A stretch of DNA of 64,000 bases from Atractiella rhizophila (lineage: Eukaryota): assembly GCA_021432655.1 (NCBI GenBank), contig MU271230.1, positions 1 to 64,000 on the forward strand. The letters run 5' to 3'. How positions within the stretch are numbered: position 1 is the stretch's first letter; each line of letters begins with the position of its first letter. Positions 11,213 to 63,580 of this stretch are shown piece by piece. The notes beneath the pieces are model-generated. The model searched no databases, was not told the origin of the DNA, and saw nothing but the letters and a program-made list of their open reading frames with translations. The position numbers and the translations under genes were made by a program.

Positions 11213-12790
11213 ATGAAGGCACTGGTCCATTTCTTCACCCCAGACTATACAAATTTGATCTGCCTCTCCATTCTTCCGTCTTTCCTATCTCGCCTGCCTC
11301 CGTCGGCTCACACGCTCCGGATTTCGTTTGTCCTTTCTCGTTCAATCGACTGGACTCTGCGAATGCGCTCAACATTATCCAATTTATCACTTGAACGGGT
11401 CGAGAATGCGGTTGACAAGGATGGTGCAATCAATCTTCGCGTTACTGTCAACAGCGAAAATGTCACAGCAACCTTTTTGGACGTTGAAGGGCAGTTGTCG
11501 GCTGACAAAAGGGGTATAAGAGCTTTGCGTGATTCACATGGCGACCAGTATTGTTATTCTCGCATGTTTCCTCGTGTTCGCGAGAATGCTATATTCGCCC
11601 CCATAGCCTCATATTCCAAAGGGTATTTCGTCCCCGTCAGTGGCGACGATTCGTCATCCTTCCCGTCCCTCCACAAAGCCAGTATCATCCAGCTCTCTTT
11701 TCCACCTCCACGTATTACTTCATGCTCAATCTCATCCTTGCCTGTGGAGCTCCTCTGCCTCATATTCAGTTTCTTCGACAATGTTTCCACCCTTTCTGAC
11801 GTATGCAAGCTCTGGAAGGCCGTTGCAGTTCCCTACTGGCGTGAACCTGGTGCTGTGATGGAAAAGTATAAGCGATTGAAACGCTATCCGAGTGCCGGAC
11901 GACTGTGGGACAGTCTGTGGTTGACCGAAAGCATGGATGTTGAGATGGTGAAGGAGGTAATCGCAGGCTCGCCGAATGTCACGGAAGTGATGATGTATGC
12001 ATTTTGGAGTGAAGAGGAGGCGAAGATTGTGTTGAACGCAATCGAAGGCTTGAAACGGGTGGATGACGTCACGTTTGCACGGTGGGGTTCAAGAAAGTGG
12101 AGGAAGGAGGAGATCGAGAACTTTGTGCGGAGGATGGGTGACAGGATCAGACGGCTCAAAGTTTACGATGTGGAAGACTCTCCCGTTTCAGCCTCAGCAG
12201 ATCTTCACTTATCCTCTCGCCTCGAATACCTAATCCTCTACGAGTGCCCGCCTCTCTCATCGCTCTCCCTCCCACACCCCGTCAAGCACCTCGCACTCTG
12301 CAATATGTGTCCACTCCCTTCCTCCATCTCAGACTACCCTCTGCCGCCTCTTCTGTTCTATCTCCAAATCGTGCTTGCCCCCTTCTCCACTGATGGAAAG
12401 GCCTCCATCCTACCCACTCCGCTCGACTTATCACACCTCACACACCTCAGCCACCTGTTCCTCGACGGGGGCGAAGAAACGTCAAACCTCGTTTCCCCAG
12501 CATTATTCAGTACCCTCACAAATGCAAAGGCGATACGTGCCATAATACTCCAGTACTGTGTGGTGGACTCATTCGACTTCTCAGACTTTGTCCACTGGTT
12601 TTTTGGGGATTGGCGGGTGAGGGGAGGGGATTGGGTGGATAGACAGGCGGTGGTGGTGCGTCTTGAAGTTCGTTTATTCTTTGGAGAGTGGAGCGAGGAG
12701 GAGATCGTGATTGGGAGGTGTACGATGAAGCAGTACCCATGGAAGGGGCATTCAGGTGTCTGGGAGTCTGGAGAGGGAGGAGTAGTGTAG
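11213..12790 (+). CDS. F1: F-box-like + LRR-like (RNI-like) protein with an unknown N-terminal domain
   Basis: Open frame of about 525 aa. F-box motif SLPVELLCLIFSF...LSDVCKLWKAVA followed by LxxLxL repeats. ATG chosen by the shared CAAAAG-ATG context. Confidence 0.85.
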   Translation: MKALVHFFTPDYTNLICLSILPSFLSRLPPSAHTLRISFVLSRSIDWTLRMRSTLSNLSLERVENAVDKDGAINLRVTVNSENVTATFLDVEGQLSADKRGIRALRDSHGDQYCYSRMFPRVRENAIFAPIASYSKGYFVPVSGDDSSSFPSLHKASIIQLSFPPPRITSCSISSLPVELLCLIFSFFDNVSTLSDVCKLWKAVAVPYWREPGAVMEKYKRLKRYPSAGRLWDSLWLTESMDVEMVKEVIAGSPNVTEVMMYAFWSEEEAKIVLNAIEGLKRVDDVTFARWGSRKWRKEEIENFVRRMGDRIRRLKVYDVEDSPVSASADLHLSSRLEYLILYECPPLSSLSLPHPVKHLALCNMCPLPSSISDYPLPPLLFYLQIVLAPFSTDGKASILPTPLDLSHLTHLSHLFLDGGEETSNLVSPALFSTLTNAKAIRAIILQYCVVDSFDFSDFVHWFFGDWRVRGGDWVDRQAVVVRLEVRLFFGEWSEEEIVIGRCTMKQYPWKGHSGVWESGEGGVV

Positions 12791-13330
12791 ATGGCACAGT
12801 CCGATTCATGCTCCGCCTGTGGAGCTACTGGATGAGACTCCCAACTCGTTCTCAACAGTCCACGACTGACGTCCTGCGGAGACAAAGAAATTGTAAGGGG
12901 GACTTGAGCACTCGTTTTGGTGGCCAGGTGAACCCTTAGATTAGAAGTTAGGAGGATAAGGATGCCACTATAGCATCCTGACATTCAAATAATGTTAACC
13001 AGCTATCTCGTTGCAAGATGTACAATAAAAAGATCTTTCACTCAGAGAATGTGAAGTCCTCTGCACTGTGAAGAGAAAATAAAAGACGGCATACAGATGA
13101 AAACAAAAAAAGGAGTCCCTCACATAAGTAGAATCAAATCTAAGCCTGGTCATTGCGCTCCGTTCATCCTCGTCCACATTCAAGTTTCCAGTCGATCAGG
13201 TGCTGCATCGTCATTCAGTTTGCCGTTTCGCTATTGAGGATAGATTTCGTAATGTGGAAGCAAGTGGGTAGGTTGAAGAGCCTGTTGGATTGACAGTTGA
13301 GTGGATGGGCCGCAAAAGCAGTCTAGTGAG

Positions 13331-13804
13331 TTATTGATTAACGAGTGTCACAGGAAGACTCACCTTCGCATTCACACACGTATTGATCCCTGCAATGCCA
13401 CTCAGCCCTTCACTACAATGGTCACCGCCTTCCATTCGAAATCTAGATCTTCTGTACCTTCTCGACGTCACGCCTACTATAGAACTTACATTGATGAAGG
13501 GGATTCGGTTGCTCTGCCCCATAGCGTGTGGCAGGGACTTGACCCTCTCTTGGTTCTCTGGCGCGATATCAGCCATGAGCACACCTGCAATGACACAGAA
13601 GATCTTGATTGCAGGTTGAAACTTCAAAAGCAAGTTGGATACCGTTTGAAGGGTACAAATCCGCAACGTGAAAGCACTTATGGAAAGGATGGAAAGGTGG
13701 AGGAACAGGAGTGCGGGAAGGAACAGGAGAGGGAGGACGAACCTGGATCGGTAACTCTCCACTCTGGCTCTCCGCCTACTCCAGCTTCCACAATTCTCCT
13801 GCAT
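13331..13804 (-). other. Possible small intron-containing gene or gene remnant with a hydrophobic, signal-like segment
   Basis: ORF contains FVLPLLFLPALLFLHLSILSISA; minus-strand GTAAGT/GTGAGT donor-like motifs; no recognisable domain. Confidence 0.2.
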
Positions 13805-14383
13805 TCTTCTACTCGATATAACCTCATAATCACGTCAGCCTTTCCTATCACAAGATCTAACTTCCCGCCTTCGGTGCGCTGGAGGTGAATTCATTCACCT
13901 TCTGTTCAGAAGTTCAAAACCCTCATCGGCGAGCTCCTCAATACATCCCTTCCCAAACGTCAACGCCTTCATCACCTCTCCACTCCATTCATCCTTCTTC
14001 CGGCCTCCCGTCACGCTGCTACGTCCGAATGATCAAGGGGACACGATACGACACGATACCCTGCTCCGCCGCGCCTATGTGCTTCTGTTGTCTTAGATGG
14101 AAGAGGTGCTTTGAGAGAATTCTCAGGCCGTGTTTGCAAAGGGAATGATTGGGGGTAGCTGGACTAGGAGATGCGAAGAGGAGGGGATGTTGGATGCCTT
14201 TTGGAGAGGATGAGGGGGACAATTGGAGAGTCTGCACCGGCCCATGTTGAGTGCACTTGCGCTGTCGCTAGAGCATTGGTGCTCCAAAGACTCTCGTTCA
14301 TCTGCAGGCAGTTGTTCCAATCAACCACCCCGAATGGTAGAGCATAAAAAACATCGTAAAGAAAGAATGAATGCAGAACTTAC

Positions 14384-14560
14384 CTCGGTTAATGACTTTA
14401 TGCGTCACACACTCCACCAGAACAGTCTTCCTAATTCCAGGTTCACCATGAGACCAGATTATTCTTCGCCCTCCTACTCAAAATCTCCTGATCCTATGCT
14501 CACTTCTAAGACCTCGTCCATCTTTCCCTCCACCGCAAGCGTGGCAATTCAACTGCATCT
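14384..14560 (-). pseudogene. HSP104: Hsp104/ClpB NBD1 gene fragment, frameshifted
   Basis: Hand translation across frameshifts gives EGKMDEV..ILSRRAKNNLV..GEPGIRKTVLVEC..VINR followed by a GTAAGT donor. This matches ClpB/Hsp104 [30 protein letters not shown]. Confidence 0.75.
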
Positions 14561-14712
14561 TCATGGAGAGCAATCGAACCTCGCCTTCCCGTCGTACTCT
14601 CCACCCCGCTGCCGCCTCTTCGAGCTTTCGCCACCATCTCCACCATCTCCACCATCTCCACCGCCTCCTTACTCCCTTTGCCTCTAGCCACATGTGATCG
14701 TCTGCGGTGAAC

Positions 14713-15381
14713 TGTGAGATACAATGGTCAATCCGCTCACATGCGGCAATACCTTCCTATTCTGGAAGCGGCTCCCGCCTAACTTGGAAGTGACATTGAC
14801 CACTGTATACCTCACAACTCCCCCGTCTCTCTACACCTCTCCTGTCGGCTCCAAGCGCGTACAATCGATCGGGAGAAGAAGGGAAGATAACCGCATGGTA
14901 TCTTAGCCTTATCCAGAAGCTGGAAGGCAAGATCCGTCGATTCCCTGGTGAGCCTCGTTTGATTCCCTTCAGCTTCCTCTTCGTTCCATGCTTTCAGATT
15001 ATTCTATATTTCTATCTACTTATGTATTACGGGTTTTCCCACGATGTTGTTTGATCTTTTATCCGATTCATTGGCCTATAAAAGAGGCCTCACTTGTTAA
15101 TGTAAATTCATCTTATTCCTCATCATCTTACTTCGCACTCATAGCAGAAAGCGCGGTAAGAATCGAGGTAAGTTCCCCGGGCCGTAGAAGCGCCCCTGTA
15201 AGATCCACTGTCTTATTTCTGAGACCAAATAGCTTGATAAGCGGCCCTGCACTTCACTGTGTGGCTAGCATAAGCTGGTTCCTGTCTTTCCTTTTCGTTT
15301 AAGCTCTCATTCATTGATTGAGCATCCTAGTTCTCGCTCTAATCGAGCTAAAGGAACTCGCTTTTGCAGTAGAGTCTCACA
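14713..15381. mobile_element. Solo LTR of a third family
   Basis: TGTGAGA...TCTCACA ends, near-perfect TSD TGAAC/TGAGC, internal TATAAAAG. Absent from the paralogous site near 28455-28500. Confidence 0.75.
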
Positions 15382-15699
15382 TGAGCTGTGATCTCGCTGA
15401 CTCGCTTGAGAGTGGCGGAGAATGGCGACAAAAGAAGAACCCTCTCCTTCAGCTGTACTTGAGCTTGAGTCAGGTGTACGGGAAGGGGATGGAAGCCGGA
15501 GGAAGAACGAGGCAACGGGGAGATGAATGAGTGGCTAGAAAGCGGCGAAGAACATCGATTACGTCACTCAATGGGAAGTCAAGGTCGGGAACGTGGGAGT
15601 GCTAAACGATGACATTCGGGATACGGTACGGGCTGTTCTTTCAACGGCACTCCCTTCTCATGTTTCATCCACTTTGTCCGGCTAGGTCCACCACCGCTC

Positions 15700-17420
15700 C
15701 ACACGTCGCATCCTCGACCGTCTCAACCATTCCACCTCCTCTACTTCCACAACCCAGAGCTGCCCTTTATCCCTCCCCTCCCCCCACACTTCCCGATCCG
15801 AAACCACTCTCCCCGCACAAGTACGACTACTCTTCGACTCTTCACTTGCTCACCCATCTCTCCCTCAAATTTCATCCCGCTCCCCGCCCTCTCCAGCTTC
15901 GTCGTCGCTGCACTTTCGCTTTGATGTACCATCGCCACCAGACGCAGCGCATAGCTGCTAACGCGCGTTCGAAGCAGACTCACTCGTACTTCACAAGAAC
16001 GAATAAAACATCTTCCTCTTCCGTCTTCTGTCCGCCCCATCCTTCCATTTTATCCAACCCGGATATGGCAGAGCAGCTGGAGTAGCCCCACAGACAGGTC
16101 GGTCGGAGGATGCCGCAGAGGGAGGACAAGGAGGGACAGGGAAGGAGATGGATTGGTCGAGGTTGGGGGGAGAGGATTTGTTTTAAGCAGTATGCATATG
16201 TTGAGGACGAGAACCGTGAGCACGGTAGGAGTGAGGAGCGGTGGGGAGGAGTGGGAAACAAATCACCACTTACTATCTGCGCTTTTGCCTGCGTGAATGG
16301 CTAGCCAATCAACGAGTTCTCTGCAGGAGCTGGCATGGACGACTCCATCTTCTCAACCATCTTGTCCCTCCGAAATCGTGCCCCTCACCTCTGCTCTCTC
16401 CCCTCCTTCCGCTTGACAACGCGTCCAGTGAGCTATCCTTTGCCTTCGTCATTCACCTCTCCGACTTCTCCTCGCCGGTTCGCTGGTACAACTTGAGAAT
16501 AGTCGAGGAAAAGGAGGCACACCTCCTCATTCTCCAATGTCTTGGAGTGGTGACGGGCAAGATTCCGGAATTGAAGAGGTGGAAGGGATTGATGGAAAGC
16601 CGGAGCAGACCCCGAGATGGAGATCTGATGTCGAAGGAAAGGCTGGATGAGAGGATTAGGAAGATTGAGGAGGTTCCTGAGCAGGAGATGTTGTCGAGTT
16701 GGCTGGCAGTATCGGAGAGAGCTGGTGCAGCATCGGTGCTACTTCTTTCGGAACAAGGACTACCAGCGAGAGTGAGGGGATGAGACAAGGACTGAGTGCT
16801 CAGTGGTTGCCGATTAATGATGGGGAGATGGAGCTGGGAGGGTTATGCTTGACGTGACGTTGGTGTCCGTCTTTCTTACTTTACATTCTTTTCTCTCCAC
16901 AACGCTAATGCCATGTCATGCGCGATGGAGCAGGAAGCAGCTGTGCGACAATGTCGAAGATCTGTGACCTTATCCAAAGTGAAACGACTCGCAGAAGCAG
17001 TGCTGGATGTCCACAGAATATTCACAAAGGGTATCGAGAGATGGAAATCCTGGTTTGTACACGTTCCATTCCGAAGACAAATTGATATTGACGGCGGCGG
17101 CTAGACTCAGACTCTGCACAACTGACCATCCGGAGGTGATTTGAAAGATGGAACGCTTTCCGCTTTCACTTGCCCTTGAAGCTTCAAGCATTGATCGCGT
17201 ATCAAAGCATATCAATGCACCAAAATCCCGTGAGCAAACCATCCCATCAGAACACACTTTGCAATGGTCTCCTCATTATCACTGTGGGAAGCCATAGAAC
17301 ACTTCACCTTCTCCAGGGCCAACTCGGTATTGTCAGCCATTTTGTCAGAGTGTCATCTTTCGCGGGATTGTCGTCTTCTTATCCAGGTCTGCATTGCTGT
17401 TGCGCTGCCACCATATAGAT
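15700..17420 (-). pseudogene. Gene X copy 2 (3'-truncated subtype)
   Basis: Homologous to the other X copies; peptide remnant IFQITSGWSVVQSLSLAAAVNINLS. Boundaries approximate. Confidence 0.5.
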
Positions 17421-19435
17421 TCGGAAACTGACGTTCCGCGTATTAGGAACATCTGTCGATGACGGTCCTCCTCTATCTTCCTCCATCCTGATACCACTTC
17501 ATCCACCGCCGTCAAAAGGTCACACAATCCAAATCTCCCGCATGTCCTTCGCCGACCCATTCCGCTCACCCTCTGACCGCCTCCGACATACACAGCAGGT
17601 CCTAAACCGACGCCGCAGAACTAGCAGAAGCCAGGCACCTACGTTAGCCACTCCAAACCATCCGATTGTCCCACCAACAAGTACGCAGCGCTCCAAGACT
17701 GAATCCCTTCCGCTTAGGAGCCCTCCATACCCTCCAACTCTACTCCGGTACTCCGCCTCCAGAGGTTTCGTAAGAAGGGGCAGACGTGATACTGTTACGA
17801 ATGAAGGAACGGGACATCATGGTTCTCAACTTAATTGTGGGATCAATGGGCCAATCAGAGGGAGACCTTTCTGGATGCTGCTGGCAGCATCACTCTCGTC
17901 CCTCCACGGACTTACAAACCCAGAGTCATGGCAGTAAGCAGCTTGAGGTCCATAATGGGTTCTGTAACAATGATATCGATAAAGGGGGATGAAATATGAG
18001 TGGACGGTCATTGGAAACTTCTTTTTGCAGAGGTGGATGGAAGAGGATTGTGTGGAATGGCTTTGGAGGACGGTTCGAAAATGCCTTATCACTTAAAGAC
18101 CTCAGCATATCAACCTCAGCCCTCGCTCCCATCCTATGTCCTACCAAAAGGCAGCCGAGGCTGACGCATAGCATGTTGTCAGAATGGATCATCGCCAGCG
18201 TGTTCCTCGTCACCATTGGACTGCTCACCATTTACTGAGGCATCATCGATGACCTCACGCTGTTTGAGAATAGGGTCAGAAGTACATTCTCTTTCATCCT
18301 TGGAAAGAATCTTGGGATAGTCGCTGATTGTTTGTCTCTCCCAGTCATCGAGGTGGGAAACAGATACTTATTTCCTTTCGAATGGCCTCATCACTTCCTG
18401 ACTTGATGCGAGGCAGAAGATGAGCTTGGAGTCATCTCGATCGGGCGAGTCCTTCCTCCTCTCCTTCGACGAATGACCGCCGTTTGAGACAGCAGCAAAA
18501 CCTCACAATCCTGTATAGTCTTACAGCTCACTCTCTCAGGACAGGAAGAGGGACGTGCGCGAAGGAGAAAGATGACTGAGCTGGTCATGTAAGGTATTGT
18601 AGTTCGAACGTGAAATGAAGGATGATGAGAGATGAAGTGTAGGATGACAAAAGTGATAAAGGATACTGAGTAGTTAGGGACACATAGCTGAAGGCGAAGG
18701 GGAAGTCAGAGAAACGTAGATGGAAAAGGGAGCAATTTGCTGGATGTCATTCGTGAGTAATTCAGACTACAATATCTTGCGAACATATTTTTCTCAAACC
18801 CGAACTGAGACTATTTCCTCTTCAAGGCCGTCTTCTACTCTGCCAAATGGCGCGAACCTCCTCTCTCCTCTTGTCCTCTGCTTGGCCTTCTATGAGAGAA
18901 CCACCGCATTCGTTATCATGTTCACTCCCTCCTCCAGCAATTGTGAACTAAGTCAGCTGGTCATTGCAGTGTGGGAAAGCGACGCAAGAGTATCAAACCA
19001 AGGTGATCACGACTGGAGATACAGAACCTTTGGAGCCAGCCAGTCCAACGTCCGTTCCCCACATCCACCGCTTGAATCACTTCATTCCTTCTCAGAGTCA
19101 CCTGCGGCACACGCCATCTTGAAAACATGTCGTCGTCCTCCTGAAGTCCAAGTTTTCCGCTTGAATAACAACGCCGTTCTATCACCAACAAACGATCCAT
19201 TCTCCCTAGAACTTGTCCATCTGGGTAGTCTCGAGCTCGGTAGATCTTTGTCGTCAAATCATGGTCTCAGTTGGCAGGACGGAAAGCAAGATGAGAAGCA
19301 AGATGAGAAGAATGATTTGGAAGAGAACGCTGACGATCAGGATGGCAAGGTCTTATGATGCGATTAAGGCACAATTTATTCTTCACCTTCAGCTTTCTTC
19401 TTCTCTTCTAACGTGGGGTATGGGGGTAGTCTGCC

Positions 19436-21091
19436 ATGTCTTCTCAAAAGATGAAGGCACTGGTCCATTTCATCACCCCAGAGTATCCAAGTCCGATCTG
19501 CCTCTCCATTCTTCCGTCTTTCCTATCTCGCCTGCCTCCGTCAGCTCACACGCTCCGGATTTCGTTTGTCCTTTCTCGTTCAATCAACTGGACTCGGCGA
19601 GTGCCCTCAACATTGTCCAATTTATCACTTCAACGGGTCGAGAATGCGGTTGACAAGGATGGTGCAATCAATCTTCGCGTTATTGTCAACGGCAAAAATG
19701 TCACAGCAACCTTTTTGGACGTTGAAGGGCAGCTGTCGGCCGTCAAAAGAGGTATAAGAGCTTTGCGTGATTCACATGGCGACCAGTATCGTTATTCTTG
19801 CATGTTTCCTCGTGTTCGCGAGAATGCTATATTCGCCCCCATAGCCACAAATTCCGAAGGGTGCTTCGTCCCCGTCACTGGCGACGATTCGTCATGCTTC
19901 CCGTCCCTCGGGGCAGCCAGTATCATCCAGCTTTCTTTTCCACCTCCACATATTACTTCATGCTCAATCTCATCCTTGCCTGTGGAGCTCCTCTCTCTCA
20001 TATTCAGTTTCTTCGACGATGTTTCCACCCTTTCTGATGTATGCAAGCTCTGGAAGGCAGTTGCAGTTCCCTACTGGCGTGAACCTGATTCTGTGGAGGA
20101 AAAGTATGAGTTGTTGAAAAGCTATCCTGGTGCGGGACGACTGTGGGAAGGACTGAGATTTGACAAAAGTATGGATGTCGGGATGGTGAAGGAGGTCATT
20201 GCAGGCTCACCGAATGTCATGAGAGTGCGGATGGGCGCATTTTGGAATGAAGAGGAGGTGAAGATTGTGTTGAATGCAATTGAAGGCTTGAAACGGGTGG
20301 ATGACGTCACGTTTGGATATTGGGGTTGGAGAAATTGGGGGAAGGAGGAGATCGAGAACTTTATGCGAAGGATGGGTGACAGGATCAGACGGCTCGCAGT
20401 TTTTCTCGTGGAAGACTCTCCCATTTCAGCCTCAGAAGGCCTTCACTTATCTTCTCGCCTCGAACACCTGGGCCTTTACAAGTACCCGCCTCTCCCATCC
20501 CTCTCCCTCCCACACACCCTCGAGCACCTCGAACTCTGGAAGGTGTGTCCACTCCCTTCCTCCATCTCAGACTACCCTCTCCCGCCTCTTCTAGAATATC
20601 TCCGGATCGAGCTAGTCCCCTTCTCTGCTGACGGAAAGACCTCCGTCCTACCCACTCCGTTTGACCTATCACACCTCACGTGCCTCACCGTGCTGATCCT
20701 CGACGGCGGCGAAGAAACGTCAAACCTCGTTTCCCACGAGTTCTTCAGCACCCTCAAAAATGCAAAGGCGATCGAGAAGATAACAGTCAAGTACTGTGTG
20801 GTGGACTCGTCCGACTGCCCAGACTTCATCCACTGGTTCTTTGGGGATTGGCAGGTGAGGGGGATTGAAAAGGGGGATCGAGTTGATGGAGCGGAGATAG
20901 GGAAACATCTTGAGGTTCGTTTATTCTTTGGAGAGTGGAGCGAGGTGGAGATTGTGATTGCGAGGAGTATGATGGGAAAGTATCCAAGGAGCAAGATGTC
21001 AGGTATTCGGGGCAAGACGACAGGTATTTGGGAGCCTGGGGAGGCAATGAGTAGTGTAGAAGGCACAATCCGACCCAGGCTACACCTCTGA
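19436..21091 (+). CDS. F2: F-box-like + LRR-like protein
   Basis: 551-aa ORF; F-box SLPVELLSLIFSFF..LSDVCKLW; N-terminal third nearly identical to F1. Confidence 0.85.
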   Translation: MSSQKMKALVHFITPEYPSPICLSILPSFLSRLPPSAHTLRISFVLSRSINWTRRVPSTLSNLSLQRVENAVDKDGAINLRVIVNGKNVTATFLDVEGQLSAVKRGIRALRDSHGDQYRYSCMFPRVRENAIFAPIATNSEGCFVPVTGDDSSCFPSLGAASIIQLSFPPPHITSCSISSLPVELLSLIFSFFDDVSTLSDVCKLWKAVAVPYWREPDSVEEKYELLKSYPGAGRLWEGLRFDKSMDVGMVKEVIAGSPNVMRVRMGAFWNEEEVKIVLNAIEGLKRVDDVTFGYWGWRNWGKEEIENFMRRMGDRIRRLAVFLVEDSPISASEGLHLSSRLEHLGLYKYPPLPSLSLPHTLEHLELWKVCPLPSSISDYPLPPLLEYLRIELVPFSADGKTSVLPTPFDLSHLTCLTVLILDGGEETSNLVSHEFFSTLKNAKAIEKITVKYCVVDSSDCPDFIHWFFGDWQVRGIEKGDRVDGAEIGKHLEVRLFFGEWSEVEIVIARSMMGKYPRSKMSGIRGKTTGIWEPGEAMSSVEGTIRPRLHL

Positions 21092-21989
21092 AACTACTGG
21101 ATCAGACTCCCGACTCTCGCATCGCTCTCATCACCCCACGGCGGCAGGACATACGTGCAAACGCACAGAATTTGCCAGGGGGACTCAACCACTTGTTTTG
21201 CTAGCCAGGTCCAACGCTTAGATTGAGAGGTAGGACAATGCCACTTGCGCTGAGACATCAAGTCCGTTACTCTCATGTTCAAACAAGATTAGATTTGTTG
21301 AGTAAATGTTCTTTTGACAGCAACCGTGAATAAAAAATGGCTTTGTATGATCAGTGCGAAGCCGAGTCCCGGAATTGACAGATGGGAAGGTGGCAAGATA
21401 GGAGGCAAGGACCAAAGTGCGAAGGTTCCAATCCACGTTGCATATTTGCACACGCTATAATGCGAATGAAGTCCTCTGCACCCTGAATGTCAGAGTACAA
21501 GTTGCAAGTATCTTCGTGCATTTGAGGCAACTGTTGGACCGATCTGCAGACAAAAACGAGAACAGGAGGCATTTCACACACAATCCCCAAAGCTTCCTTT
21601 CGATGGTTCGCTTCTTCAATGTCCATTTCGCCACATCTATCTTCGTCCACATCCATTTCTGAAGGAGAATGGAGATCTCGACTCGATGGGCCGTGGCGTC
21701 GCATGGCACATGCTCTTTCACCATCCAGGAGTGGCACGTCAATGAGGAAGGGAGGAGATTGAGGAGCTCGTTTTGTATCGAACAGCTGCGCGGACTAGCC
21801 ATAAAGCAGTCTATTTTACATATTGAACGAAAGGGAAAAATTTGAAGATGCACACGTTTGAACCGTGCATATCGACATTTCTGCGATGGTCAGGTTATTC
21901 CTCTGTAAGTCGGTTCCACGATCGTCAGTTTTTATTGCTGACTTGAGATACCAAAGTTTCACGACTTCTGTCTGGATATGCAGACTAAA

Positions 21990-24480
21990 ACAGACCCGAC
22001 CACGTCTTCTGTGGTAGGACTTCGGCGTAAAAGACTATTATAGAGTCGATGTACATAGTTGCACACAGACGAAATCGCGTCTAAAGAGCCTTACTCACTT
22101 CTTCTTCTTCATGGTCTTATCAATAACCTCCGCCATCAGACCTTGGCCAACAACACTCATACCAGCACCATAAACTCGAAGAGACGACGTACTAGGTGCG
22201 AGACTCTGCTTGAGCTACTCTACCTTCCCGGCATCAGCAAGCACGAGGGCGTAAAGGTATTTTGAGCATCGGATCGTGATCTCGATGACGGGTTGAGCGG
22301 AATGAGTGCTTTGGATTTCTTGGTGGGAGACGCGACTGAAGGTTGTTTCCTTTGTGTCAGGATGTGTACGCTTCATGCGAGTGGCTGCATTGTGGTGTCA
22401 GCCTTTGTATGAGTAAGTGGGGGGAGGAAAGGAAGGTGGCCTTTGGCAGTAGGAGCATGTACTCGGATTCCCATACCTATAAAACGTCAAACAGGGGCTG
22501 CTTGAGGGCTTTAATTCACCTTCATCACCAATCTGCTGTCAAAACCGATAAGAGAGCAGAAGACTTACAGGGTAGCTTGGAGCACGTGCACAATCTTCAA
22601 AGGGTAGATACTTGTCTACTCCTGATTACTTCTCCTGCATTAACCAGCTTGTCATCCGCATGATGACCACGAAGCTTGGAAGTCGATGATCGGTGGAATG
22701 CGGCGGCTAACTTTGCGGAGTGCTGGAGCAGCGATCGACGACGTCGTTCACGTTGGAGCGCAAGTGCCAGGTATGCGACGCATTACTCTTCCTCAACCTC
22801 AGCACCCAGCCCGTTCTTTCATTCTAACCTTGCCCGGCTACTGCTCGTAGTGCTCCACCATCCCCTGAACCCATGACGCGTACCTCGACCGCCCAACAGC
22901 GCCGCTGTTCCATGACAGCCATCCCTCTCCTTCCCCACCCAAAGCTCCTCACTGGCATCCCCCCACCTCCCAATCCCAACGACTCGCACCCCGCACAAGA
23001 ACTCTTCGACAATCTTCCAAGCCACAACCCTCCACGCACAAGTTTCATCTCCACCTCCGCTTCTGCCTCTGCTCCTGCCTTCGCTTTCGGCTTGACGGAC
23101 CACTACACGACGTACCAGAACCTCCCAACACGCGTTCGAAAGCAGACGCACTCGTGCCGCTCTCAGTGAATACGCGTCGTCCCTATCTTCTCTCTCCTTC
23201 TTCCTTCGGTGTATCTAGACCATCCAGTGGCTGGAGTAGTCCAGAGAGAGGTTGATGGGGAAGGCCGCAGAGGAGGACATAGAGGGTGACCAGTTGATCG
23301 AGGTGGGTTTGGTGATGGAGAAAGCGTAGAGAGCGGGTGAGGAGGATTTGTTTCAAGGCACTTACATATTCTGAGGAGGAAGAGGCGAGGACGAAGCGGC
23401 AGGAGCGGTGGAGAGGGGTCGAAAACACATCCACCACCTACCTACCGTTTGTCTACTCTTCCTCCTGCCGGACATCATGTAACCATTCTACGGGCTCTCT
23501 GGAGGACATTAGGATGGACGACTTACCTCCTCTCAACCTTCTTGTATGCCGCAAATCCTGTCCCTCCCTCTGCTCCCCCCTCGTTTCGCTTCGTCAACGT
23601 CGCGGGAATGCGTCGAGTGACCAATCATTCGCCTGCGCCATTCATCACCCATTTCCCCCGCCGGCTCGCTGGAACCACTTGGAATATTCAGGAAAGGGCA
23701 CGCTTCTTCATTCTCTAACGTCTTTGTTAGGAGAGGAGGAGAATGGATGGAAAGTGGGAGCAGACGTAGAGATGGAGTGCGCTGAAGAGTATGCGCAAGG
23801 ATTGAAGAAGGGTGTCGAGGAGGAAAGGCCGCGAGATGGGAGGGCAGCATATGAGTGAGGGCTTCTTGTGGAATGAGGTGACCATGTTGTCTGTCTTCCC
23901 TACTTTCGCATTATTTACTCTGCACAGCGCTGATTCCTTGTGACGTGATGGAGCAGCAAGCAAAGAGTGGGACATCGTCGAGGCTCCGCCATGCTGTCCA
24001 ACCTGGGACTGGGATAACTCGCACATTCTTGTCAGCAGTGCTAGCAGCCCACAGAATATTCACATCTGTGGTAAAGCGAGGGTATCAAGCGACGAAACCA
24101 TAGTTGGTATTCCTTCCTCTCCTAACACGAAGGGAGATGGACGATGATGGCTAGACTCAGACGCTCGAGAAACCAGTCATTAGCACACGTTATACTTCCC
24201 GCTGCCCGTCAAGCTTCAAACGTTCTCGCATATCGACGAATATCAACACACGTAACTCTCCATCCTCTGACAATCTTATTTGAATGACGGACTTGCCGAG
24301 CACGCGAAGTTTAGTAGCTCGCAAAGATCCCATCACTATCACTGTGCGATGGAACTTCTCCTCTTCAGCCCCAACTGGCTTTGTTAGCCGTTTGTCGGAG
24401 GGTCATCTTTCGCAGGATGTAGTATTCCTCTTCAGGTCTGCATCGATGCTGTTCCGCTACTAGATGGATTCGGAAACTGA
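21990..24480 (-). pseudogene. Gene X copy 3
   Basis: Homologous to 58060-60660; remnants DVFSTPLHRS..SSSEY..LKQIL and TKTLENEEACP. Boundaries approximate. Confidence 0.5.
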
Positions 24481-41700: not shown

Positions 41701-41708
41701 CCCCTCCC

Positions 41709-48200: not shown

Positions 48201-48281
48201 GGTATACGGTACGGGGGTTATGGGAACGAATAAAGCGGGAAGCGGATAAAGCGGGAAGCGGAGCGGCGAAGTGAGGGGGAG

Positions 48282-48504
48282 TGTTGGAGATCCGTGGATG
48301 CCACTTGTTTGTTTTATTTGCATTGCGTTCCGGATGCCGTGCCAAACATGTGCACTTCACCGCTAGTCCGGACTTATAAGTATGCTTGATGTGTTTTCTT
48401 TCCTCTTCTTTCTCCCCAATCACATATTCGTTTACATTATTTGCACTCACTCATAAGTGATTGGGGATTGTTAGTGCAAAGTGGTAGAAAGTACATTTCT
48501 CACT
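48282..48504 (+). repeat. 3' LTR of Copia-2
   Basis: Direct repeat of 34299-34521, preceded by the PPT and followed by TSD CCATT. Confidence 0.92.
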
Positions 48505-54957: not shown

Positions 54958-57392
54958 ATGGCTGAGCAAACATCTCGCCTATCTCATGGCACTCAGGAAC
55001 CAAAATTGACAGCACTGGTCCATGTCATCACCCCAAATAACGATCCCGATTCGATTCACCTCTCCATTCTTCCGTCCTTCTTATCTTGCCTACCTTCGTC
55101 GATTCAAATGGTCCGGATTTCGTTTGCCTTATCGCGACCAAATATGAGGTTGAACCTTGCAGCGATGTCACCAAAATTGTGTTATTTATCACTTGACGGG
55201 TCAACAATGCGGTGCACAAGGATGGTGCAATCAATCTTCATGTTACCATCCATCCCAAAAATGTCTCAGTAACCTTTTTGGATATTGAGGGGCATGCATC
55301 GACTGTCGAAAGAGATGTCAAATCAGAGGTCGACACACTTGCTTCATATGGCAATCCATTTATCCGTGCATTTCCTTGCTTTCGCGAGAATGCTATATTC
55401 GTCCCCTTAGCTTCATTCTCCCAACACGAAGGACGCTTCCTCCCCATCGATGAAGACGAATCATCGTCTCTCCCATTCCTCCCGACCGCTAGCATCATCC
55501 AACTCTCTGTCCCACCTCCAGAAGTTATTCCATGCACAATTTCGAGCTTGCCTGTGGAGCTCCTCTGTCTCATATTTAGTTTCTCCGACGTCGCTTTCAC
55601 CGTCTCGGAAGTGTGCGAGCTTTGGAGGAAGGTTTCAGCACCTTATTGGAGCGAACCTGATTCTGTATCGGGCAAGTACACTCGATTGAACCGCTATCCT
55701 GGTGCTGGACGACTATGGGACACCCTGGAGTTTTACGAAAGTATGGATGTTGGGATGGTGAAGGAGATCATTGCTGGCTCGCCGAATATCACGACGGTGT
55801 GGATGCATGCATTTTGGAATGAAGAGGAGGCGAAGACTGTGTTGAATGCAATCGAAGGTAAATGGCTGGATGAAGTCAGCTTTGGAAGTGGTTCAAGAAA
55901 GTGGAGGAGGGACGAGATCGAAAACTTTATGCGGATGAAGGGTGATGGGATCAGACGGCTCCAAGCTCACGACGTGGAGGAATCTCCCGCTTCAGCCTCA
56001 GCAGGCCTTCACTTATGCTCTCGCCTCGAATACCTTGACCTCTACAAATACCCGCCCCTTCCATCGCTCTGCCTCCCACACACCGTCAAGCACCTCCAGC
56101 TCTCCAATATGTGTCCACTCCCTTCTTCCATCTCAGAGTCCCCTCTGCCGCCTCTTCTGCAAGACCTCACCCTTGTGCTCGCCCCTTTCTCCACCGATGG
56201 AAAGACCTCCATCCTACCCACTCCGCTCGACTTATCATCCCTCAGACACCTCACTGTGCTGTTCCTCGACGGGGGCGAAGAAACGTCAAACCTCATTTCC
56301 CGCGAGTTTTTCAGCACACTGAAAACTGCCACATTGATAGATTGTATAACACTCAACTACTGTGTGGTGGACTCGTTCGACTTCCCAGACTTCATCCGAT
56401 GGTTCTTTGGGGATTGGCGGGTAAGGGGGATCGAGAAGGGAGATCATGGTGATGGAGAGGAGATGGGGTACTATCTTGAGGTTCGTTTATTCTTCGGAGA
56501 GTGGAGCGGGGAGGAGATCGTGATTGCGAGGAGTACGATGGCAGAGTACAGAAGGAGGAAGGGGTCAGGCATTTGGGAGCCTGGGGAGGGGGACTTGACG
56601 TCAACTGCGGACTCATCACTCTCACTCTCAAAACCTGACGACTTTTTTGAGTACACGATGGAACCCCCAGTAACCGACGGTCTTCTGGAAGAGATGTGTC
56701 CCCTCCCTTCCTCGAACTTTATGCGGAGGATGGGTGACGGGGTCAGATGTCTCAAAATTTACGATGTGGAAGACTCGCCGGCTGCAGCCTCAGCAGGCTT
56801 TCACTTATCCTCTCGCCTCGAATACCTTGACCTCTACAAATACCCGCCTCTCCCATCGCTCTCCCTCCCACGCACACTCGAGCACCTCGAACTCCGGGAT
56901 ATGTGTCCACTCCCTTCCTCCATCTCAGACTACCCTCTGCCACCTCTTCTGGAAGATCTCACAGTCGTCATCGCCCCGTTCTCCGCCAATGGAAAGACCT
57001 CCATCCTACTCTCTCCGTTCGACTTATCGCACCTCACACACCTCACTCGCCTGATCCTCAATGGGGGCGAAAAAACGCCAAACCTAGTTTCCCACAACTT
57101 CTTCAGCACACTCAAAAATGCAACTGGGATTTTTGAGATAACCCTCAAGTACTGTGTGGTGTACTCGTTCGACTTCCCCCAATTCATCCGCTGGTTCTTT
57201 GGGGATTGGCGGGTGAGGGGAGCTGAGGAGAGGGATCGGGTTGATGGAAATGGGATAGGGCAACATCTTGAAGTTCGTTTATTCTTTGGAGAGTGGAGTG
57301 AGGAGGAGATCGTGATAGCGCGGAGGACGATGGGAGAGTACGCGACAAGGGAAACGAGCAGGTGGTCAGGTGTTTGGGAGGCGGGGGAATGA
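54958..57392 (+). pseudogene. F5: F-box/LRR-like gene with an early frameshift and an in-frame duplicated LRR half
   Basis: 1-nt deletion near 55196 (CTTGACGG versus CTTGAACGG). The 726-codon downstream frame contains the C-terminal LRR block twice. Confidence 0.82.
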
Positions 57393-58059: not shown

Positions 58060-60660
58060 ATAAAACTAGCACAGCGTCTTCGGTAACAACACTTCGGCGT
58101 GACACATATGATGAATCGATGTGCATAACTGCATACATACATAATCCCGACCAATGAGCCTCACAGCACACTTCTTGGAGCTCTTATCGTCACTCCCATT
58201 ACTCTTACTCTGGCCCAACACCGCAAACTCGAAGAGAGAACTTACTCGGATGGAGACTCTGCTTGAGCTTCTCCGCCTTCGCGCTATCAGCAAGCACGAG
58301 TGTAAAGATGTTTCGAGCATCTGATCTTGGACTTGGTGACGGGTTGTGTGGAATCGAGGGCTTTGGATTTCTTGGTGGGGGAGGTGACGGAGGCTTTGGC
58401 ATTTGCGCGGGACATGTGCGCTCTAAGCGAGCAGCTACATCGTGGTATCAGAGCTTGTAGTTGGTGAGAGAAGGGGAGGGGACCTTTGGCATACTTTCGT
58501 TGAGCAACATCAAGGAGCATGTACTGGCAAGTTTCAGATTCCTGTACCCAAAAAATGGCAAATACCAACTGCATCAGGTCTTCAATTTCCCCTTCGTTAC
58601 CAGTCTAATCTCACCTGAAACCTATGGGAGAGCAGAAGCCTCAAGAGGTTACTTGGGCTCAGCACTCGCGTAATCTTGAAAAGGGTACGCTCCGTACTCC
58701 TGATTATTCCTCCTTCACTAATCAGTTCGTCGTCCGCATGATGTCGATGACACTTTGTGAGGCTTTGGAAGTCGATGATCGGTGAGGGAATGAATGGAGC
58801 GGCTAACTTTGCAGAAAGCGGGATCGACAAGCCGTATCGACGACGTCATTTATGTATTCGAAGTCGCGACACGTTGCCCTGCATCAGTGCCACAGCGCCT
58901 AGCTCTTCTCTCAATTCCAACGTTGTCCGGCTAGGTCTACCATCCGTTCCCGCAACGCGCCTCAACAACCGTCCACACCGCAACTTGTTCAGCCATCCCA
59001 GCTCCTCTCCTTCGACAACCCAAAGTTCTTCGTCCCTCCCACCTCGCGGTCCCAAACCACTCTCCACCACGCAAATACGAACCACTCTTCGAGTCCTCAC
59101 CAACTTGAACCATCACCTCCCTCCACACTTATATCCTGTCTCCACCCACCTACATCGTCAACGCCGTCTCCTTCGCCTTCACTTTCGCTCTTGACGTGCC
59201 CCGCACCCGACGTACCCATGTGCTCCCAACGAGTACACGAAGCGGATCTACTCCCACCGCGCGAGCGAATACCACAGGAACACTCTATCCTTTCTCCTTC
59301 CCTTTTGTCCGGATGGAGCCGCTGGAGCTGTCTTTCTGTCAAGATGGTTTGAAAGGTGGCAAAGGGAGGTGGAGGGACGGCGAGATGGATCAGTCGAGGT
59401 GGGCTTGGTGATGGAGAAACCGTAGGAGGAGGGCGGGCAGGTTTCTGTTGGACGGAGGTGTGCTGAGGAGCAGGGGTTGAGGAGCATAGGGGCGGCGAGT
59501 GCTGGAGAGGGGACAACATCGCACCACTTACTGTCCGTCTGCTCTTTCGCCTGAGGGCATCACATAACTGACCGCAGTTCTCTATAGGACATTGGCATGG
59601 ACGCCTCTCTCCTCAACGGTCGTGTACACCCAACATCCTGCCCTCCCTATCCTCCCTCCTTCCACTTGACAACTTGGCGAGGGACACATCGAGCAACCAA
59701 CCTTCCATTCAGCTCTCCGACTTCCCCCGGCTTGCTCTCTGGAACCATTCGGGGAAACGGCTCCGTCGTTCTCTAATGTCTTTGTTAGGAGCGTGGACAG
59801 GCGAGACTCCGGAGTTGAGGAGGGGAGGGGAATTATGTGGAAAGAGGGAGCAGATGTTGGATGGAGAGGTGATGTCGAGGAAATGGAAGATGAGAGGATG
59901 AGGATGGATTGAAGAAAGCATCGAGGAGAAAAGAGTCGAGATGGGAGGTGGCATGGGAGAGAACCGGTGCAGCATTGGTGCTGCTTCTTTCGGAATGAAA
60001 AGTACTAGCGAGCGTGATGTGATGAGATGACGATTGAGTGACACTCTCTGGTTGACGAATGAGGGATGGGGGGATCAAACTTGGAAGGTAACACTAATCT
60101 GCTTTGCTGTCAGCCTTCCATACTTAACCCTCTTTCGCCGTCACAACGCTGAATCCATGTGATGCGATGGAGCAGGACGCGTTGTTCACTTTGTCAAAGC
60201 TCTGCCAGATTATCCAAAGGGGGACGACAGGCACTGTCATCCAAGCAAGGCTGGCTTCCTGCGAACACACACATTGCATCAAAAGTGGTTTGTACACATT
60301 TCTTTGCTAAGGCAAGCAGAGATTGACGACGGCTAGACTCAGGTACTCCACAAGCTGACCATCCACAGACAATTCGAAGACGGAACACCTTCCGCTTTCC
60401 GCTGCTCTTAAAGCTTCCAGGTCCACTCGCAGATCAAGGTGTATCGACTCACGAGAGCTCCGTGCGCCAACAATACAGATGGGATTCGCTGCCCTGCTAG
60501 GGTTAGCACCTTGCAAGGACCAACGTCACTATCACTGTGGAACGTTACAGTACCCATCGCGCCAAAACTTTTTTTGTAGGACTGTCATTCTTGCGTGGGA
60601 TTGTAGCATTCCTGTTCAGGTCCACATTGCTCCTGTTCTGCTACTTACTAGATGGATTCA
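58060..60660 (-). pseudogene. Gene X copy 6 (most complete uninterrupted copy)
   Basis: Remnants PKEAAPMLHRFSP, HLDSFLLDAFFNPSS, FPEWFQRASRGKSE, VAGTDGRPSRTTLELREELG, KKSKALDS. Confidence 0.55.
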
Positions 60661-61900
60661 GAGACTGACTTTGCATGGAACAGCTTTTGATGGCCGTCTC
60701 TCCACTATGTTCCTCCCTCCTACGACTTCTCTATTCACCGCCATCAATCCACACATCTACCATAAAACAATGCCATGCCAATCGCAATCCCCCTCCGACT
60801 TCGTCCATGGCATCACACGGTTCAGCACAAAGTCAAAGAGTTCGTTCTCCTTCGTCTCTCACAAGAATCCCAGGGTATCAGCTGACCGTTCCTTACTCCC
60901 AGTCCTCAGAGTGAGAAACATATTTCCATTCGAACGACTACATTGAGTTGATGCGAGGAAGACGACGAGTTTGAAGCCACCTCGATTGAACGATGTCCTT
61001 CCTCCCCTTCAACGAACGATCGCACTGTGAGATGGCAGCAACAAGAATTCCTCCTTTACGGTCTTCTTGCTCACGGGCTCCCGGGTGGGAAGCAGGAAAG
61101 GGAATGAGGAGAATCTCGGTCTCTGCATGTAAGGCAAACGAGTTCAGAGCTGAATGAGGGAGAATGATGGAGGAGAGGAAGATGTAAGTGATGGAGGAAT
61201 AGTACAGTTAGTAGCGGTGTAGAGTGGTTGATAGGGGAGCTGAAGGAGTAGAAAGGGAAGAGTGAAACAGTTGCACTTTGCTGGTTGTCATTTGTGAGTC
61301 ATTCACGCTTCAATATCTTGCACACACTTCTCTCAAAATCAAAACCCGAACTGACAGTCTGCCCTCCATTAAGGCCTACCTCAGCTCCATCGAACAACTC
61401 CGAGTCTCTCCTGTTGCCTTCCACGAGCGGACCATCTATCCCGAGCGCTAGGGAACCATGGTAGCTGTCATCGTTATAGTCTGTGTGACCTCGAACAAAT
61501 TGTGAACCAACTCAAAGGTCTTTGCAATGTAGGAAAGGGGATGGAGGATTATCAAACCGTGATGTTCACGATTGCAGGTACGGACGTTCCAAACCCGTTC
61601 CCCACATTCTCTGCTTCATTCACCTCACTCATTTACACAGGTCTTTGTAGTCCAAGTTCTCCATGTCAATAAAGCACTTCATAATCCAGACATTGAAACG
61701 ATCCATCGAACTCTCCATTGTCCTTGATTCTCCCACGAACTGTTTATCTCGCCCCTCACAGTTTGGGACCTCGGTTCAACTTTTTCCTCAATCTTTATCA
61801 TAGTTTCAACCGATCGAGGAGGACGGCGTCTGCTGACGCAGCGATTTAGGCACGATTCCATCTCCACCTTTGGCTTTTAGCGTCTCATCTGACCTGCTTT

Positions 61901-63580
61901 ATGGGAACTAGTCTGCTCGATTTGTGCAAAAAGATGACGGATCAGCAAACATCCAGCTTTTGCCATAGTTCTGCGGAACCAGACTCGATGGCACTTGTCC
62001 ATGTTATCACTCCAGAGCAATATCCCAATTCGATCCACCTCTCCATTCTTCCCTCTTTCCTATCTCGTTTACCTCTCTCAATTCACACGCTTCGGATTTC
62101 GTTTATTTTATCTCGTTCATTGGACTCAAATTGGGAGCCTGGAGAGATATCAAAATTGTCCTATTTATCACTTGAACGGGTCAAAAATGTTGTCCACAAT
62201 GATGGAGCAATCAATCTTCACATTACTATCCACAATATCACAGTAACCGTTTCGGAAGAGCATGTGTTGGCATTCGAAAGAGTTGTCAAATCAGAGGTCG
62301 ACCTGCTTGCTTCATATGGCGATCCATATCCTCGCACATTTCGCACATTTCCTTTCTGTCGCGAGAATGCCATATTTGCCCGCATAGCTGCATACTCAGA
62401 ACATGAACGACACATCCTCCCCATGGGCGAGGACGAATCGCCATCCCTCCAATCCCTCCAATCCATCCACTCAGCTAGCATCATCCAACTCTCGGTCCCA
62501 TGTCCAGGCGTTATTCCAGGCGCCATCTCACGCTTGCCCATCGAGCTCCTCTCTCTAATATTCAGTTTCTCCGACAAAGTTTCTACCCTCTCTGAAGTGT
62601 GCAAGCTGTGGAGGGAAGCTTCAGTACCTTATTGGGATGAACCCAATTCTGTGGCGGAAAAGTATGAGCTGTTGAAAAGGTATCCTGGGGCCGGACGTCT
62701 GTGGGACGGACGGGAATTTGACGAAGACATCGGTGTTGAGAAAGTGAAGGAGGTCATCGTCGGCTCGCCGAATCTCACAACTGTGTGGATGCGTGCATTT
62801 TGGGATGAGGAGGAGGCGAAGATTGTGTTGAATGCAATTGAAGGCTTGAAACGGGTGGATGATGTCATGTTTGGAAGTGGTTCAAGAAAGTGGAGGAAGG
62901 AGGAAATCGAGAACTTTACGCGGAGGATGGGTGACAGGATCAGATTGCTCAAAGTTGACGACGTGGAGGACTCTGCCGCTTCAACATCAGCAGGCATTCG
63001 CTTATCCTCTCAACTCGAATACCTACTCCTTCACAAGTACCCGCCTCTTCTATTCCTTTCCCTCCCACGCGCTGTCAAGCACCTCGCGCTCTCCAATATG
63101 TGTCCTCTCCCATCCTCCATCTCAGAGTCCCCTCTGCCGCCTCTTCTGGAACATATCACGATTGTGCTCGCCCCCTTCATTGCCGATGGAAAGACCTCCA
63201 TCCTACCCACTCCGCTCGATTTATCACATCTCACACACCTCACTCAGCTGATCCTCGACGGGGGCGAAGAAACGTCAAACCTCGTTTCCCGCGCGTTCTT
63301 CAGCACCCTCAAAAATGCAACTGCGATATTTCAGATAAGACTCGAACATTGTGTGGTGGATTCATTCGACTTCCCAGACTTCATCCCCTGGTTCTTTGGG
63401 GATCGGCGGGTGAGCGGACTCGAGATGGTTCATGCAGTGAACATGAAACTTGTTGTTTTGTTATTCTTTGGAGAGTGGCGCGAGGAGGACATCGCCTCTG
63501 CAAGGACGCTGATGGGGGAGTACACAAGCAGCAAGAGGTCAAGTGTTTCGGAGTCCGGGGAGCAGGAGAAGTACTGGTAG
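61901..63580 (+). CDS. F6: F-box-like + LRR-like protein
   Basis: 559-aa ORF (the conserved-context ATG is at 61934); F-box RLPIELLSLIFSF..LSEVCKLW; LRR strands. Confidence 0.86.
   Translation: MGTSLLDLCKKMTDQQTSSFCHSSAEPDSMALVHVITPEQYPNSIHLSILPSFLSRLPLSIHTLRISFILSRSLDSNWEPGEISKLSYLSLERVKNVVHNDGAINLHITIHNITVTVSEEHVLAFERVVKSEVDLLASYGDPYPRTFRTFPFCRENAIFARIAAYSEHERHILPMGEDESPSLQSLQSIHSASIIQLSVPCPGVIPGAISRLPIELLSLIFSFSDKVSTLSEVCKLWREASVPYWDEPNSVAEKYELLKRYPGAGRLWDGREFDEDIGVEKVKEVIVGSPNLTTVWMRAFWDEEEAKIVLNAIEGLKRVDDVMFGSGSRKWRKEEIENFTRRMGDRIRLLKVDDVEDSAASTSAGIRLSSQLEYLLLHKYPPLLFLSLPRAVKHLALSNMCPLPSSISESPLPPLLEHITIVLAPFIADGKTSILPTPLDLSHLTHLTQLILDGGEETSNLVSRAFFSTLKNATAIFQIRLEHCVVDSFDFPDFIPWFFGDRRVSGLEMVHAVNMKLVVLLFFGEWREEDIASARTLMGEYTSSKRSSVSESGEQEKYW

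Follow-up and report, generated by a model that had tools for sequence, protein, structure and literature searches.

Skp1-Cul1-F-box (SCF) receptors of the FBXL type (human FBXL17, FBXL2 and Skp2, yeast Dia2, plant TIR1, COI1 and MAX2/D3) carry an F-box directly before a leucine-rich repeat (LRR) solenoid. The F-box is recognized by helices of the pattern LPxE(L/I)L..(I/F)F...VCxxW. In plant nucleotide-binding LRR (NLR) and receptor-like proteins, the variation of the LRRs is found at the solvent-exposed xxLxLxx positions, and the genes form tandem clusters evolving by birth-and-death and gene conversion. Non-self receptors known from fungi are NLR-like proteins with WD40, ANK or TPR repeats. 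A further group of comparable genes are the F-box families that have expanded in Caenorhabditis and plants, for which the available part of one account describes tandem expansion, an F-box under purifying selection and a faster evolving substrate domain with ω (the ratio of nonsynonymous to synonymous divergence, dN/dS) above 1; the F-box proteins of C. elegans carry FTH, FBA, LRR or WD40 substrate domains, with FTH and FBA_2 as examples (PMC8120010). F-box genes of Agaricomycetes are described as expanded and fast-evolving in the context of fruiting-body development, and the accessible portion of this mushroom account mentions neither a hypervariable LRR face nor Atractiella (PMC10282164). 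Here, a window of 64,000 nt of fungal DNA from Atractiella rhizophila (assembly GCA_021432655.1, contig MU271230.1, positions 1 to 64,000) was analysed, which harbors a cluster of genes encoding F-box/LRR proteins. All coordinates are positions within this window. The explanation favoured here, with somewhat better than an even chance of being right, is that the cluster represents a single tandem array belonging to an expanded family of FBXL-like genes and provides a repertoire of adaptors with differing specificities. In the literature on Atractiella, on F-box proteins of fungi and Pucciniomycotina and on non-self recognition, covered mostly at the level of abstracts and exclusive of supplementary tables, this family is not described, and neither are fungal F-box proteins with a hypervariable LRR face or a fungal recognition system with an F-box as output.

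When the long open reading frames (ORFs) and copies were compared with the window by tblastn, six paralogous loci (F1 to F6, Table 1) were detected within 52 kb, all on the plus strand. The intact ORFs F1, F2, F3 and F6 span 525 to 559 codons; F2 served as the reference copy for numbering, models and alignments. F5 continues in frame from a complete LRR into a second block that is partial, which brings the array to seven LRR blocks. An earlier note made from the nucleotide sequence had claimed six paralogs with seven LRR blocks between 11213 and 63580, and tblastn and the protein alignment agree with this. The spacers quoted there (MCPLPSSISDYPLPPLL, SILPTPLDLSHL and LDGGEETSNL) are near-invariant in the protein alignment, and the quoted strand variants (the LEYLIL/LEHLGL, VKHLAL/LEHLEL, LFYLQIV/LEYLRIE, IRAIILQ/IEKITVK and VTEVMMY/VMRVRMG series) are all present in it. 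The description of the genes as intronless holds for the homologous gene body but not for the NCBI model of F1 (P0002), which is identical to F1 (100%) over residues 31-562 and adds an upstream exon of 30 residues. Likewise, the set of six loci stands, but the disruption of F4 and F5 had been missed. A comparison of the DNA with F3 and F6 and three-frame translations revealed a 1-nt deletion in F4 at approximately 31708-31711 and an in-frame stop at 32326-32328, the only stop once the frames are joined. F5 lacks 1 nt at approximately 55194-55197, inside the N-terminal domain, and its long ORF has its first in-frame ATG (55743) past the F-box. The NCBI model P0001 (752 aa) aligns with F5 from 55206 to 57389 at 96%; a gap of about 22 codons in this alignment appears to be an intron placed in the model to bridge the break. 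F3 equals the NCBI protein P0009, listed as the window's own protein, while no exact annotated protein was found for F2 among 152 proteins fetched.

The F-box-like family of Pfam (PF12937, curated cut-off 24.3 bits) was matched above its cut-off by F1 (27.1 bits) and F2 (27.9 bits), and 32 of the 44 members of the family alignment gave a match at E<=0.01. Residues P182, E184 and W206 (F2 numbering) are invariant in the 44 members, and L181, L186, F190, V202, C203 and L205 are conserved in at least 90% of them. When the family profile was compared with solved structures, all seven weak sequence matches were F-box segments, FBH1, Skp2, FBXL17 and FBXW7 being named among them (best E-value 0.0065). 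With an ω of 0.35 (NG86 method), the F-box is the segment of the gene with the lowest ω and, judged by this value, is under purifying selection. No Skp1 gene was found within the 64-kb window.

An AlphaFold (AF2) model of F2, calculated from the 44-row alignment (mean predicted local distance difference test, pLDDT, 70), comprises a beta-rich part (residues 1-146), the F-box helices (183-229) and ten parallel strands (236-515). The pLDDT of the solenoid is mostly 84-97 over residues 221-390 and lower (45-92) toward the C-terminal end. On this predicted model the LRR solenoid follows directly after the F-box. All 14 Foldseek matches at E<=0.001 were LRR proteins, and in comparisons of the solenoid model with VIA-align the Z values were 17.3 for RanGAP, 16.8 for FBXL17, 16.2 for FBXL2, 15.5 for Rad7 and 14.2 each for Skp2 and TIR1. 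The F-box plus LRR architecture proposed in the earlier note is thus supported by the Pfam F-box-like matches of F1 and F2 and by the resemblance of the model to FBXL17, FBXL2 and Skp2, and the LRR solenoid expected there was obtained with ten strands and with LRR proteins as the only top Foldseek matches. The likeness to FBXL proteins, seen on a predicted model, amounts to Z values of 14-17 over 264-296 residues and Foldseek E-values of 5.5e-4 to 3.8e-3. Unlike these proteins, the array family has no match to an LRR sequence family, its repeats are irregular and carry invariant Pro/Ser-rich loops, and it possesses an additional, beta-rich domain of approximately 146-170 residues without a detectable relative; moreover, it occurs in one species and in tandem arrays. 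The anchors of the repeats are spaced 20-43 residues apart, a weak match to the FNIP repeat (18.6 bits) is below the cut-off of 21, and Tandem Repeats Finder detected three short repeats in F2 (period 9-21), none of them with the period of an LRR. In contrast to fungal NLR-like genes with highly conserved internal repeats, F2 is therefore a gene without near-identical tandem repeats.

The conserved N-terminal domain of 146-170 residues ahead of the F-box has a pLDDT of 50-79 in the full-length model of F2 and of 59 when folded alone. It gave no Pfam match, its best Atlas score (0.79) is at chance level and its best structural Z is 3.6; the model is poor and no fold could be assigned, which should not be taken as evidence of a new fold. 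This domain bears on the possibility that the proteins are F-box mimics delivered into root cells, where they would hijack the SCF machinery of the plant as the Ralstonia GALA proteins do, with a variable face tracking host targets. F-box/LRR effectors of this kind exist, as stated in the available part of the GALA literature (PMC2244805), A. rhizophila is discussed in the accessible portions of papers on root and rhizosphere communities, and the family is species-restricted, expanded and variable at its surface. Nevertheless, no obvious N-terminal signal peptide was recognized in the translations by eye (no predictor used), and the conserved domain ahead of the F-box is a further point against such a role; a host-directed function is considered very improbable.

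All 57 proteins matched by F2 are named A. rhizophila, so that at least 57 annotated relatives exist. A profile of 44 members, compared with 1.84 billion representatives, found 107 sequences at E<=1e-3, of which 44 reached E<=1e-30; the weaker or longer matches that were looked up were from Atractiella in ten out of ten cases. A metagenome scan with the family alignment resulted in 324 pattern matches, none of which was confirmed by tblastn. Among the sequences covered, the family is known from Atractiella alone and is species-restricted. With six loci in 52 kb and at least 57 relatives in a single species, it represents a lineage-specific tandem expansion.

The differences between the copies are concentrated on the strands of the solenoid. 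For this comparison, 50 positions were defined as x positions, at offsets 2, 3, 5, 7 and 8 from the hydrophobic anchor in the ten predicted strands (LxxLxLxx). The mean entropy in the 44 members was 2.41 bits at the x positions, 1.22 bits at the other 205 LRR positions and 0.67 bits at the 30 anchors (Mann-Whitney P=5e-12); the x set was chosen after the alignment had been viewed, though via canonical motif offsets and DSSP strands. At positions 3, 5 and 7, entropies of 2.4-3.9 bits were found in 26 of 30 cases (minimum 0.32). Of the 40 LRR columns with the highest variability in the 44 paralogs, 30 are x positions, a class that accounts for 17.5% of the columns (hypergeometric P=5e-19). In the seven blocks of the window, they differ between pairs at a mean of 0.60 compared to 0.26 elsewhere (P=1.7e-12) and provide 24 of the top 40 variable columns. 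Family and window data hence agree with the earlier claim of a variation focused on the strand x positions rather than spread evenly. The Pro/Ser-rich loops (the "spacers") and the convex side are near-invariant across the 44 paralogs. At positions 3, 5 and 7, the composition (1290 residues in the 44 paralogs) departs from that expected from base composition: D is enriched 4.1-fold, E 3.0-fold, W 2.9-fold, Y 2.4-fold and H 1.8-fold, whereas P (0.01-fold), L (0.27-fold) and Ala and Cys (0.41-fold) are depleted. Because the rows of the family are related, this result is taken descriptively; the skew indicates that these positions have been filtered by selection, and the residue composition shows an exposed surface that is apparently still under selection. 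In this family, a conserved F-box and a rigid LRR scaffold are combined with a concave face on which D, E, W, Y, H and R are abundant.

Under the favoured explanation, the F-box would dock each protein on Skp1-Cul1, and the concave LRR face would recruit a protein for ubiquitination. The rigid scaffold, including the near-invariant Pro/Ser-rich loops, would be kept, while the concave strands would vary polar and aromatic residues from paralog to paralog. Since the concave residues differ on a scaffold that is retained, the copies may form a repertoire of adaptors of different specificity. Working adaptors are preferred over wreckage in view of the conserved F-box, the invariant loops and the four ORFs that have stayed intact at a dS of approximately 0.4. 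In duplicating in tandem and in combining a conserved F-box with a faster recognition domain, the family resembles the F-box families of Caenorhabditis and plants as described in the part of the source that was available; unlike the Caenorhabditis examples given there (FTH, FBA_2), the substrate domain is an LRR. An ω above 1 is reported for those families, while in Atractiella it depends on the model.

The site models were fitted with a codon-likelihood program written for this analysis (GY94, F3x4), which is neither PAML nor HyPhy, on the seven recombining blocks. By NG86, ω is 0.63 in the N-terminal domain and 0.48 in the LRR outside the x positions. The dN of the x positions is 0.46-0.58 compared to 0.15 elsewhere in the LRR, and the dS of the x codons is 0.80 compared to 0.32. 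With a uniform dS, the site models gave a very strong signal of positive selection: M2a gained twice the log-likelihood difference (2dlnL) of 56.9 over M1a, with 11% of the sites at an ω of 4.4, M8 gained 72.6 over M7 and 57.3 over M8a, and the x positions provided seven of the nine sites with a posterior of at least 0.95 and 16 of the 21 with at least 0.8. In a fixed-partition model, however, the synonymous rate of the x codons is 2.1-2.3 times that of other LRR codons (P=1e-4 to 1e-3), and the x positions have an ω of 1.8-2.3 when this rate is fixed at 1. A model with three classes of synonymous rate beats M2a (log-likelihood -3790.1 vs -3803.0). The M2a/M1a and M8/M7 comparisons are highly significant, but the significance is lost with variable synonymous rates, and the ω of the x positions is close to 1. 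Normalised ratios of nonsynonymous to synonymous changes in codon pairs with a single difference were 1.12 for positions 3, 5 and 7, 0.72 for all x positions, 0.39 for the other LRR codons and 0.28 for the F-box. In our reading, the exposed positions change three to four times as fast as the scaffold and thereby come close to the neutral rate. An ω above 1 at these positions is neither shown nor excluded by seven recombining blocks. Since many replacements are rejected and the mean ω is still about 1, those accepted would be fixed at neutral speed or faster. On the whole, architecture, birth-and-death and x-focused variation as proposed in the earlier note hold, but positive selection is not established. 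The control for synonymous rates, the recognition of the broken copies F4 and F5, the conversion tract and the composition test are additions of the present analysis. As the positivity in standard M1a/M2a and M7/M8 comparisons vanishes with synonymous-rate variation, claims on such arrays need this control.

The synonymous changes show a pattern of their own. At 4-fold sites, the Leu anchors differ by 0.139 and the remaining LRR codons by 0.228; the values are 0.262 for the N-terminal domain, 0.366 for the x codons and 0.375 for the F-box. In the LRR (20141-20980 and the homologous codons of the other copies), synonymous divergence follows amino-acid conservation codon by codon, a single-codon scale beyond that of conversion tracts, so that conversion cannot explain it. 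Candidate causes are selection on codon usage at conserved sites or third-base changes remaining from earlier 2-fold states.

Several findings weigh against a repertoire of working adaptors. The F-box-like scores of F6 (23.5 bits) and F3 (18.7 bits) are under the cut-off, no Pfam LRR family was matched by five window proteins at E<=1 or by the 44 members at E<=0.01, and the transcript evidence consists of contigs of a single run (X2) without a recorded type. Two of the six copies (F4 and F5) are broken and the gene-wide ω is high (NG86 0.56, M0 0.63), both of which fit a weakly constrained family. With a free synonymous rate, the ω of the x positions is 0.93-1.05 and indistinguishable from 1 (95% interval by profile likelihood approximately 0.6-1.8), and a class with ω above 1, added to the model with synonymous-rate variation, gains a 2dlnL of 2.7 (P=0.26). 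Under uniform dS, the half comprising the N-terminal domain and the F-box is positive as well (2dlnL=41.2), which points to model misfit or recombination and not to a signal specific for the LRR.

The low F-box-like scores raise the question whether the proteins act within an SCF complex at all. Their F-box-like helices might instead be a structural cap or a dimerisation element of LRR proteins that serve as scaffolds or inhibitors, in line with marginal F-box scores (18.7-27.9 bits), the modest best E-value against a solved F-box and a top structural match that is RanGAP and not an F-box protein. Yet conservation in the family peaks at the canonical F-box residues, this segment has the lowest ω, and none but F-box segments appeared among the seven weak matches to solved structures, which makes a function outside SCF complexes quite improbable.

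The rates bear on a different alternative, a weakly constrained and partly decaying family, in which the scaffold would be kept for folding while the exposed residues bind nothing particular and drift neutrally. A free synonymous rate leaves the x positions at an ω near 1 (1.12 or 0.72 by single-difference pairs), the test for ω above 1 under dual rates is not significant (P=0.26), and the dN of the x positions is near the gene-wide dS (0.39-0.48) and near the divergence of the spacers between the genes (65-71% identity). A third of the copies is broken, and the gene-wide ω of 0.56-0.63 fits weak constraint. On the other hand, the residues found at positions 3, 5 and 7 deviate strongly from what mutation would be expected to yield, so that many replacements must have been rejected, and the loops and the convex side, usually the least constrained portions of an LRR, hardly vary among the 44 paralogs; an F-box ω of 0.35 and four long ORFs intact at a dS of approximately 0.4 likewise speak against such a family. 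Neutral drift of the exposed residues is therefore regarded as doubtful, albeit quite conceivable, and the copies of the array alone do not prove selection rather than free drift as the cause of their differences.

If the favoured adaptor repertoire exists, the array offers natural specificity variants useful for finding SCF substrates. Whether it could serve in conflict is a narrower question. Each concave face might pick a different foreign or selfish protein for the proteasome, in an SCF-based conflict or immune repertoire of the fungus; a mycovirus, a transposon, a toxin or an effector of a competitor would be candidate targets, and the repertoire would be renewed by birth-and-death, conversion and diversifying selection. 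This defence reading, which derives solely from analogy with nematode and plant F-box families, is unlikely. Large families of this kind with variable surfaces are suspected to keep pace with pathogens or selfish elements, and a comparable case from a basidiomycete root endophyte would bring fungi into the pattern. As in the LRRs of plant NLRs, the Atractiella copies vary at the exposed strand positions of a conserved scaffold, are clustered and show conversion. Unlike plant NLRs, they do not contain NB-ARC, NACHT or TIR domains (no such Pfam family in five window proteins or in the 44 members), and their presumed output is the F-box and not a nucleoside triphosphatase switch. If the conflict reading were true, the array would serve recognition in the manner of plant NLR clusters, with the F-box as output.

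Table 1. Features of the F-box/LRR array in the 64,000-nt window of A. rhizophila (LTR, long terminal repeat).
Feature	Positions	Strand	Description
F1	11213-12790	+	Intact 525-aa ORF (N-terminal domain, F-box, LRR)
F2	19436-21091	+	Intact 551-aa ORF
F2 N-terminal domain	19436-19873	+	Residues 1-146, beta-rich
F2 F-box	19967-20083	+	Residues 178-216, Pfam PF12937 27.9 bits
F2 LRR	20141-20980	+	Residues 236-515, irregular solenoid with 10 strands (predicted)
F3	25876-27465	+	Intact 529-aa ORF
F4	31478-33132	+	Pseudogene
F5	54958-57392	+	Disrupted or aberrant copy
F5b	56715-57389	+	Duplicated C-terminal LRR block (repeats 4-10), junction ...MCPLPSS|NFMRRMGD...
F6	61901-63580	+	Intact 559-aa ORF
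Tract shared by F1 and F2	11066-11844	+	92-97% identical, sharp drop at about 11845 (100-nt windows); probable gene conversion
Non-coding spacer copy	16070-17470		Duplicated along with the gene unit (self-blastn)
Further spacer copies	9072-10388, 23298-24515, 28689-30278, 48599-49651, 59394-60420		
Nested LTR retrotransposons	34299-48504	+	Inserted in the array, separating F4 from F5

The starts of the copies are spaced 5.6-8.2 kb apart, with the exception of F4 and F5 (23.5 kb). Self-blastn detected spacer copies that are 65-71% identical to one another. A reading frame conserved between these copies was sought and none was found, so that the duplicated unit consists of a gene and a non-coding spacer; the two long ORFs in the spacers gave no Pfam match. 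A co-duplicated partner gene between the copies was considered and rejected, as the repeats share no reading frame and the ORFs lack a Pfam match. The array would grow and decay via unequal crossing-over of a unit of 5.6-9 kb, to which occasional gene conversion, pseudogenisation and retrotransposon insertion would add. With a unit duplicated together with its spacer, two of six copies broken and retrotransposons inserted, the tandem birth-and-death postulated before is well reflected in the window.

Conversion probably took place across the 5' half of F1 and F2 (Table 1). Between these two copies, dS rises from 0.07 in the N-terminal region to 0.29 in the LRR, and the trees of the N-terminal and LRR regions are discordant. 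A run test for gene conversion on 15 pairs, which gives weak support, resulted in P=0.0015 for F5a-F6 (F5a, the full LRR of F5), approximately 0.02 for F2-F6 and F3-F6 and at least 0.064 for the other 12 (uncorrected values). Recombination among the copies is evidently real.

Of the nested retrotransposons between F4 and F5, the outer one is a copia-type element with LTRs of 223 bp (pair 96.9% identical) and the inner one (36582-44648) a chromodomain gypsy-type element with LTRs of 491 bp, the 99.8% identity of which indicates a recent insertion. Pfam domains found in the nested elements are gag, RVT_1, rve and Chromo; runs of N are located within them at 38321-39028 and 42972-43848. A further copia-type LTR element (2273-8644; LTRs of 233 bp, 98.7% identical) is located in the spacer upstream of F1, and the sequences on either side of it (1993-2267 and 8648-9958) correspond to the spacer upstream of F6. 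A 490-bp segment (5202-5688) interrupts the pol of this element; the segment is 94.7% identical to the 491-bp gypsy-type LTR and is probably a solo LTR. A part of the spacer after F1 (13865-14550) is repeated after F3 at 27713-28371.

Contigs of sequencing runs were compared over 11000-30999, which covers F1 to F3. The contigs of run X2 show skips of 51-82 nt with GT..AG or CT..AC ends; these intron-like skips indicate that X2 holds spliced cDNA. A 584-nt contig of this run lies on the LRR of F3 (26579-27162) with zero differences, a hint at transcription of F3. The RNA nature of run X1 is a guess; this run holds 7% of the sampled words and is from a different sample and year than X2. Its F3-like contigs at 26545-27466 show an identity of 98.6-99.6% and could be derived from a strain variant or a close paralog; one of these contigs lacks 2 nt at 27367, close to the C-terminal end. 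In F2, one X2 contig skips 52 nt (GT..AG) at 20540-20593 in the LRR, with a short side of only 28 nt; this splice, if real, would shift the frame and truncate F2 after approximately residue 368. After F1, X2 contains spliced transcripts, apparently of the minus strand, at 13124-14762 (skips 13309>13364 and 14301>14384, ..AC ends). The minus-strand exons suggested by X2 between 13000 and 14950, when joined, gave no ORF longer than 146 aa, and the transcripts are possibly non-coding or antisense RNA. Upstream of F2 and F3, plus-strand GT..AG skips were found in X2 at 18752-18827, 24692-24756 and 25135-25217, which, together with the additional exon of P0002, hint that these genes have 5' exons or spliced leaders.

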